From Octopus vulgaris (Eukaryota): DNA of 64,000 nucleotides. Under the pieces are notes generated by a model. The model saw only the letters and a list, made by a program, of their open reading frames with translations, made no database searches and was not told where the DNA came from. Shown in pieces: positions 33,475 to 35,775 of the stretch (position 1 is its first letter; each line of letters opens with the position of its first letter). Position numbers and translations under genes: made by a program. The stretch is from NCBI GenBank assembly GCA_951406725.2, contig OX597820.1:50840001-50904000 (forward strand), read 5' to 3'.

Positions 33475-34844
33475 CAGTAGTTTTATTTTTATTTTTATAG
33501 CGTGCTTTCACTTCACTACCGAGCGCAGCTCTGTGTGCCTTGGGTATGTGCTGTGATTTGTTGTGATGCTCTGATGGTTATTGTATGGAAAGTGTTCTGC
33601 GTAGGATGTGGGCAGTGCCTAGTAGTGCAATTTTCTGTATGTTATATGTGTTTGTAAGTCCTGGTGTTTTTGTTATGTATTTGTCTGAATATTTTTTTAT
33701 CATGCCTAATGCACCTACTATGATAGGAATTGTTTCTGTTTTCAGATTCCACATTCTAGTTACCTCTATTTCCAGGTCTTTGTATTTTGAGAGTTTCTCC
33801 ATTTCTTTTAGAGACACGTTGTCATCTGCCGGTATTGATACATCAATTAAAAAGCATTTTTTTTCTTCATGGTCTCTGACAACTATATCTGGTCTGTTGG
33901 CCTTAATTTCTCTATCTGTGTGTATCGGCATATCCCAGAGTATGGTTGCTTTCTCGTTTTCTGTGACCTTTTCTGGTGTGTGCCTATACCATCTTTTTTC
34001 TGTTGTTATTCCATAATGTTGGCATAGCTTCCAATGTATGTAGGTTCCAACTCTGTCATGTCTGTGAATATATTCCTTCTTAGCCAGGACTGGGCAGCTA
34101 GAGATAATATGATTTATTGTTTCTTGTCCATCTCCACATATTCTGCAGTTACTTGTAATATTTCTTTTCATTACATGTTTTTGGTAATTTCTGGTGGGGA
34201 GGCTTTGGTCTTGTGCTGCAATTAAAAATCCCTCTGTTTCTGCTTTGAGTCCTGAGCTTCTCAACCATTGCTGGGATTTTTCTTTGTCTATTTCTTTTGC
34301 GTTTAGTTTAGTGCAGTATTTACCATGAAGGGGCTTTTCTTGCCATCGTTTTATCATGGTTCGTTGCTGTTCTGTTTTTAGTTTGGATTTCATTTGTTTT
34401 ATAGCTTTTGTTGTTTCTTCATCTTCTTCTTCTTCTTCATGTTTATTAGGTGGTATGATTTCTTGTTTGTATTTGTCAGCTTCCTTAAATACTGAGAACA
34501 GTTTTTTGTTTTGCTCGTGTTTTGCCGCTATCTGGATCAGTTTTCCTTCCTTCTGAAGTAGATATTTTTGCAGTCCTATGGTGGTTATTTTATAGTAGTT
34601 TTCCAGTTGTATAAGGCCTCTACCACCTTCCATACGTTGTATATATAGTCTTTCTATGTCAGATTTTGGGTGATGCATCCTAGATCCTGTCATTATTTTT
34701 CTTGTTTTCCTATCTATTTTGGTCAGTTCATTTCGTGTCCAGTTAAGGATATTGTAGCTGTAACTTATAACTGGGACAGCTAAAGTGTTGATACCTATTA
34801 TCTTGTTTTTAGCATTGAGCTCTGTGTTTAGTATTGATCTAACT
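33475..34844 (-). mobile_element. Young 5'-truncated R4/Dong-clade element, copy 2 (intact zinc knuckle plus RLE frame, ORF 33578-34693)
   Basis: Nearly identical to 29634-31002 (about four differences seen by eye); same cagtagttttattt 3' end. Confidence 0.92.
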
Positions 34845-35045
34845 TGATACCTATTATCTTGTTTTTAGCATTGAGCTCTGTGTTTAGTATTGATCTAACT
34901 TGATACCTATTATCTTGTTTTTAGCATTGAGCTCTGTGTTTAGTATTGATCTAACTTGAGCTCTGTGTTTAGTATTGATCTAACTTTGAGCTCTGTGTTT
35001 AGTATTGATCTAACTTTGAGCTCTGTGTTTAGTATTGATCTAACT
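34789..35045. repeat. Tandem re-copies of the truncated 5' end of copy 2 (3x56 bp, then 29+30+30 bp)
   Basis: All six units end in ..gtattgatctaact; copy 1 has this sequence once and continues cgtctata. Confidence 0.95.
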
Positions 35046-35775
35046 TTATTATATTATTATATATAATATTATTATTATTATTATTAATATAATATTATTA
35101 TTATTATTATTATTATTATTATTATTATTATTATTATTATTATTATTATTATTATTATTATTATTATTATTATTATTATTATTATTATTATTATTATTAT
35201 TATTATTATTATTATTATTATTATTATTATTATTATTATTATTATTATTATTATTATTATTATTATTATTATTATTATTATTATTATTATTATTATTATT
35301 ATTATTATTATTATTATTATTATTATTATTATTATTATTATTATTATTATTATTATTATTATTATTATTATTATTATTATTATTATTATTATTATTATTA
35401 TTATTATTATTATTATTATTATTATTATTATTATTATTATTATTATTATTATTATTATTATTATTATTATTATTATTATTATTATTATTATTATTATTAT
35501 TATTATTATTATTATTATTATTATTATTATTATTATTATTATTATTATTACTATTATTACTACTATTATTACTACTATTATTATTATTATTATTATTATT
35601 ATTACTATTATTATTATTATTATTATTATTATTATTATTATTATTATTATTACTATTATTATTATTATTATTATTATTATTATTATTATTATTATTATTA
35701 TTATTATTATTATTATTATTATTATTATTATTATTATTATTATTATTATTATTATTATTGTTGTTGTTGTTGTTG
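35046..35775. repeat. ~0.7-kb (TTA)n array with CTA interruptions, ending in (GTT)n
   Basis: Directly visible. Confidence 0.95.

Follow-up and report, generated by a model that had tools for sequence, protein, structure and literature searches.

A five-unit co-terminal array at the 5′ junction of a truncated Dong-like LINE in Octopus vulgaris

Additional sequence at the 5′ junctions of R2 has been described previously. Fig. 5 of PMC3774820 includes inserts of three 20-nucleotide copies and others consisting of two or three pieces of different lengths, and the reiterated pieces of upstream 28S target end, by eye, at the same 28S position (PMC3774820). Snap-backs are a described class of R2 junction (PMC11371274), Drosophila R2 junctions have been read as priming on the cDNA via microhomology or added bases (PMC2718515) and second-strand synthesis by R2 in vitro involves imprecise priming and jumps (PMC13000458). 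LINE reverse transcriptases (RTs) can use DNA as a template, and their jumps to the start of a further template require no homology (PMC6895275). In flies, the cDNA junctions of group II introns receive additional nucleotides from PolQ, often copied from nearby (PMC3280974), and extra 5′ nucleotides are present at 14.6% of truncated L1 copies (PMC2912911). Repeat addition by telomerase and DRT10 depends on a boundary stem-loop together with an alignment repeat of the form A-B-A′ (PMC12632851). Papers on R2 continue to describe the joining of the LINE 5′ end, and the identity of the second-strand polymerase, as the uncertain step.

TAA microsatellites are the target of Dong elements (PMC3812793), which are members of the R4 lineage (PMC3774820). 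Among recently active LINE groups in O. vulgaris, Dong-R4 is the largest and has 1,129 insertions (PMC13282606). No description of stuttered junctions for Dong was found in the literature searched. Here we analysed the 5′ junction of a truncated LINE in a 64,000-nucleotide stretch of the O. vulgaris genome (GCA_951406725.2, contig OX597820.1, positions 50,840,001 to 50,904,000, forward strand), referred to as the window; coordinates are those of the window.

The element and its copies in the window

Three LINE copies and the (TTA)n tracts between them were delimited as follows.

27601..29631, + strand: (TTA)n of ~2 kb, the 3′ flank of copy 1
29632..31798, − strand: copy 1, a longer 5′-truncated copy of the same family as copy 2, encoding RT and CCHC, with its frame broken near the 3′ end
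31783..31822, + strand: 5′ junction of copy 1; native element sequence stops at 31798
31817..33472, + strand: pure (TTA)552, which flanks copy 1 upstream and copy 2 on the 3′ side
33473..34844, − strand: copy 2, a LINE of RLE type (R2-like, Dong-like) represented by its 3′ 1.37 kb and 5′-truncated at 34844
35095..35759, + strand: (TTA)n, the upstream target of copy 2 and 3′ tail or target of copy 3
35760..36502, − strand: copy 3, an older and broken piece of a separate, though related, family; its 5′ junction into (TTA)8 is plain

Copy 1 was found to encode an RVT_1 domain (7e-28) and a zf-RVT zinc knuckle that fell below the cut-off. All five PDB matches were to R2 proteins or proteins named RT-like (best 1e-29), and an alignment of homologs showed the CxxC..H..C and NRPD..D..K residues to be invariant or nearly so. 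The open frame of copy 2 (421 amino acids) contains a CCHC knuckle, with a zf-RVT match below the curated cut-off, and has a PD..D endonuclease-like end followed by a short 3′ UTR. Judged by these motifs, the order of RT, CCHC knuckle and PD..D/K endonuclease would make the element an RLE-type (R2-group) non-LTR retrotransposon. Homologs at 50–55% identity were ~1,050–1,450 amino acids long and had no APE family among their listed Pfam domains; the window copies are truncated.

All three window copies are flanked by (TTA)n, which is (TAA)n in the sense orientation and corresponds to the target of Dong. Among 83 related loci (80 from metagenomes and three from a metagenome-assembled genome, MAG) a sense TAA-type run was present in 52 versus an antisense run in seven, and four full-length loci (L001, L003, L026 and L073) begin just after such a run. 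The element shares with Dong both the RT-CCHC-endonuclease C-terminus and insertion into TAA microsatellites (PMC3812793, PMC3774820). It appears to work like Dong (R4 clade), a label taken from its architecture and target. Relatives were looked for in viral contigs and none were found. The three prokaryote-genome matches (L081–L083) are short LINE contigs in one cyanobacterial MAG and are probably carry-over from an animal host. An old fragment of the copy 1 family, 72% identical, is located at 13537–13629.

Copies 1 and 2 differ at four positions in 1,370 bp (three substitutions and one indel) and their 3′ ends are identical. The T run at 30015–30022 of copy 1 is one base shorter than that of copy 2, which breaks the copy 1 frame; public runs contain both lengths. 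At the 5′ junction of copy 1, nucleotides 31799–31805 are the reverse complement of 31783–31789, a snap-back with an 8-bp stem and a 7-nucleotide inversion (chance ~0.0014), and an 11-nucleotide tandem duplication follows across the junction. Loose contig ends (20 contigs in one run and 11 in another) gave the native continuation behind 31798, which restores the RPITCL motif of the homologs; 31799–31805 of copy 1 is therefore foreign to the element. Copy 3 had no blastn match to copy 1, and its translation ends in a similar LLGTA motif.

The region between 27601 and 36529 is thus a chain of three TAA-targeting LINE copies, belonging to two families, and nearly pure TTA tracts of ~2.0, 1.7 and 0.7 kb, an arrangement which suggests that insertions and TTA tract growth feed each other. 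Within the tracts, a block of alternating CTA and TTA at 29443–29487 resembles the CTA variants at ~35550–35660. Elsewhere in the window, dispersed SINE-like repeats were present at 3799–3914, 6752–6854, 18575–18805, 24046–24294, 38635–38730 and 41095–41666, the last of which (41.1–41.7 kb) is a partial tandem with a period of 184 bp.

The co-terminal array at the 5′ junction of copy 2

The sequence following copy 2 was parsed with copy 1 as the reference. Copy 2 matches copy 1 up to 34844, after which five units were found, given here on the + strand.

34845-34900: unit 1, 56 bp, copy 1 30947-31002, perfect
34901-34956: unit 2, 56 bp, copy 1 30947-31002, perfect
34957-34985: unit 3, 29 bp, copy 1 30974-31002, perfect
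34986-35015: unit 4, 30 bp, copy 1 30973-31002, perfect
35016-35045: unit 5, 30 bp, copy 1 30973-31002, perfect
35046..35094, + strand: target-derived scrambled TA sequence, 49 nucleotides, adjoining unit 5

The five units contain no substitutions over 201 bp and all end at copy 1 position 31002, including the last unit, which is the non-trivial part. The sequence-only reading had described co-terminal units of 56, 56, 29, 30 and 30 bp after 34844, and the parse reproduced these exactly in the assembly. It had also reported scrambled TA sequence before regular (TTA)n, which corresponds to 35046-35094 followed by (TTA)152, and was right to place the array at the 5′ junction of a truncated LINE. 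The scramble itself contains re-copies, with an 8-nucleotide period at 35046/35054 and a 26-nucleotide period at 35061/35087, as well as inverted pieces in TAA phase.

The pairing available to a primer ending at the shared base was 1, 1 and 0 nucleotides at the restart sites used, and sites offering 5 nucleotides of pairing at 30924 and 30931 were not used. The anatomy of the array, this lack of pairing and the target-derived re-copies are observed directly, and the array is probably the product of repeated synthesis during insertion, as had been proposed. A preference for TTGA at the restarts was considered and rejected: three of the seven TT runs in the last 57 nucleotides are already TTGA, so that its occurrence at two of two is not significant.

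Junctions in public data and in related loci

A search for the array in public data listed 24 runs, none of which contained more than 0.25 of the 12 sampled words. This share is the family-generic one (27 of 111 distinct 31-mers), and the search is a weak one that is not evidence of absence. When four public runs were aligned to copy 1, the copy 2 junction was absent among the joints listed (139 + 42 further rows were present); runs X9 and X11 had too little depth to be informative. The junction could be unique to the individual whose genome was assembled, or could be an artefact. Two runs showed the family to be very abundant, and it is apparently so in the host group, as 74,498 contigs were aligned from one run.

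Run X14 had 20 distinct joints listed, of which 17 go forward and the following three go back.

30793 to 30758: one A between, depth 503
31680 to 31597: TTA between, depth 328
29955 to 29861: 13 nucleotides of TTA repeat between, depth 139

The units produced by these go-back joints are 37, 87 and 108 nucleotides long and their flanking homology is 0 by strict count. The listed forward joints have depths of 72–208, which two of the go-back joints exceed, depth not being copy number. Re-copies therefore recur at apparent truncation points, with target DNA included in two of the three. Go-back joints thus occur in some other copies of the family (three of the 20 listed X14 joints), and these may or may not represent co-terminal, multi-unit arrays.

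Twenty-four truncated junctions of distant relatives, picked by hand from short-read assemblies, were also inspected, and none repeats the element start over at least 12 nucleotides. For this set a match at L060 was treated as a microsatellite variant and three duplicate loci were dropped. Inverted TTA pieces were present at five of the 24 junctions. The 5′ junction of L048 (152–256) contains an array of ATAATCATC, with a 9-bp period, that looks like a mixture of TAA and the element start. Two pairs of insertions with different flanks are apparently truncated at the same base (L030 at 383 and L048 at 257; L041 at 535 and L059 at 4995), a hint of hot spots for truncation at TAA-like positions of the element. 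A 16-bp tandem array was found within the 5′ part of a related element (L008, 233–430).

Origin of the array and comparison with known junctions

Our tentative preference is that the shared point represents the fixed 3′ end of the first-strand cDNA, at which second-strand synthesis was repeatedly started and aborted. The first-strand cDNA (the + strand here) would have stopped at 34844, leaving a free 3′ end, and the opposite (TAA)n target end would have had to prime the second strand on this cDNA. The target end would first have made short self-templated TA pieces. The primer would then have engaged the terminal base of the cDNA, copied 30 nucleotides, fallen off and re-engaged at the same terminal base, so that the products would have been made in the order short TA pieces, 30, 30, 29, 56 and 56 nucleotides and then, processively, the full length. 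The shared point would in this case be a start of synthesis on a DNA template and not a stop on RNA. The enzyme may have been the RT of the element acting as a DNA polymerase, or host end joining of the Pol theta type, and slippage may later have added one or two of the identical units. The strand, the order, the enzyme and the occurrence of all this in a single event are what we infer from the array.

This preference is based on the poor pairing, on the re-copies and inverted pieces of the scramble, and on the published second-strand behaviour of R2 and other LINEs. Pairing of 0–1 nucleotides with the 5-nucleotide sites unused fits priming at an end. The re-copying extends into target-derived TA sequence, and unit length rises almost steadily when read in second-strand order. 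The snap-back of copy 1, in which the cDNA folded on itself, needs a DNA template and counts towards second-strand synthesis, as do the three X14 go-back joints, two of them with TTA between end and restart and two with the greatest depths listed for that run. The reiterated 28S pieces at R2 junctions are a further, mirror-image precedent (PMC3774820). Direct and inverted pieces from both flanks, together with the neighbouring snap-back, are also what is expected of a Pol theta or synthesis-dependent end-joining scar. Counting against second-strand priming are the absence of re-copies from the 24 junctions of relatives and the fact that sequence alone does not fix the direction of synthesis. 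The recurrence of the same two stop sites also counts against it, hairpin pausing being unsupported as their cause (ranks 21, 21, 35 and 39 of 70).

The sequence-only reading had taken the shared end to imply that the RT came to the end of a broken RNA and, in the manner of telomerase, moved back several times to realign upstream on that RNA. We consider this unlikely. A fixed start on the 3′ end of a cDNA leaves the same mark as a stop on RNA, so the shared end is no proof of the latter. The geometry does fit, as the + strand has the order of a cDNA with one stop base for all units; moreover, the R2 RT lengthens products in vitro by jumping between RNAs (PMC11371274) and some DRT10 RNAs realign on only 2 nucleotides (PMC12632851). 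Against this, pairing at the sites used is 0–1 nucleotides with better sites unused, and no A-B-A′ alignment repeat is present there. The RT would also have to leave an RNA:DNA hybrid of 30–56 bp and enter an internal site, whereas the described jumps reach the beginning of a template. Target-derived and inverted pieces require DNA templates, and the RNA lacks target DNA at that position. Nor does the array show the constant unit that a dedicated RNA with a boundary stem-loop would impose: there are three unit lengths, only weak folds near the end and a coding mRNA as the template. That a LINE RT re-copied one broken RNA end several times in vivo, with no alignment repeat, is distinctly unlikely; in one form of this idea the break would be a piRNA slicer cut and the 29–30-nucleotide units the resulting small RNA. 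Counted from the end, position 10 of the sense strand is A and a U comes after position 30 (chance ~0.08 from composition). As a general rule piRNA-sized templates were rejected, because the other go-back units (37, 87 and 108 nucleotides) do not fit. A DRT2-like pseudo-circle, bringing the RNA 5′ end to the restart site by a stem, was also rejected, with only a weak, G-U-containing stem predicted.

The sequence-only reading had not expected post-insertion slippage to give two unit sizes with one endpoint, and was wrong in this: the 56-mer contains two TTGA words, and a deletion from one to the other leaves precisely the 29-mer. It is somewhat unlikely, though conceivable, that a single 56-bp duplication arose at insertion and that later tandem-repeat turnover produced the rest, by expansion, the TTGA-TTGA deletion to the 29-mer, a one-T slip to the 30-mer and one more expansion. 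Slippage naturally re-uses identical units, the array adjoins a long unstable (TTA)n tract, and the difference between the two copies at four of 1,370 positions indicates that some time has passed. Such turnover would nevertheless demand some four additional events, although the copy is young and its 201 bp of units contain no substitutions, and it explains neither the 8- and 26-nucleotide re-copies of the scramble nor the first duplication with 1 nucleotide of homology. It is very improbable that no retrotransposition took place here and that template-switching repair, stalling again and again at a single break, instead produced the structure, either by partially duplicating copy 1 at the DNA level to give copy 2 or by mending a (TAA)n boundary that had been re-cut. 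Copies 1 and 2 are adjacent with identical 3′ ends, their shared alleles are minor in two deep runs (for example at 30009 and 30789) and long AT tracts are fragile. However, TAA runs are the usual target of the relatives (52 of 83 loci), so clustered young insertions are expected, and the same array holds a third copy from a distinct family. A library or assembly artefact beside the long (TTA)n tracts, to which we give equally little credence, would account for junction-specific words being in none of the listed runs and for the joint being absent among the joints listed. The search used only 12 words, though, and a private insertion would be missing from other individuals. Three perfect unit sizes would also be atypical of consensus error, and similar go-back joints occur in independent data.

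If second-strand priming on the cDNA end is accepted, a ladder of re-copies sharing one fixed point would be the fossil trace of successive attempts at priming. The single copy 2 junction has no evident function and little biological effect; its use is as a pointer to a family-wide test. Since the family is so abundant, a survey of its junctions could decide whether synthesis starts at cDNA ends, how target bases are involved and which pairing rules apply. No description of a co-terminal ladder on the element side was found in the literature searched, although the supplementary junction lists of PMC4245944 and PMC11371274 may hold cases; the available portions of PMC4245944, PMC13580325 and bioRxiv 10.1101/2024.12.14.628481 contain none.

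Telomerase and DRT10 likewise make tandem copies ending at one template position (PMC12632851). They do so with an A-B-A′ repeat and a boundary stem-loop, whereas the array has 0–1 nucleotides of alignment and three unit lengths and was a one-off event. The snap-backs of R2 PRINT and the PolQ-dependent group II intron junctions share with the array an error-prone joining of the cDNA 3′ end that copies nearby sequence (PMC11371274, PMC3280974), and copy 1 carries the snap-back form. Those junctions are described as single snap-backs or short additions, in contrast to the five-unit co-terminal ladder described here (PMC11371274, PMC3280974). The reiterated 28S junctions of R2 are also at the 5′ end of an RLE-type LINE and have tandem re-copies, some differing in length, that by eye end together, with added T's (PMC3774820). 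In these R2 junctions the copied DNA is the target, in units of ~6–25 nucleotides, whereas in copy 2 it is the truncated end of the element, in five units of up to 56 nucleotides (PMC3774820). The target-side reiteration of R2 is a published precedent and the mirror image of the element-side ladder of copy 2. The array therefore looks like a real but unusually clean and extreme variant of known 5′-junction reiteration and not like evidence of telomerase-like RT activity.
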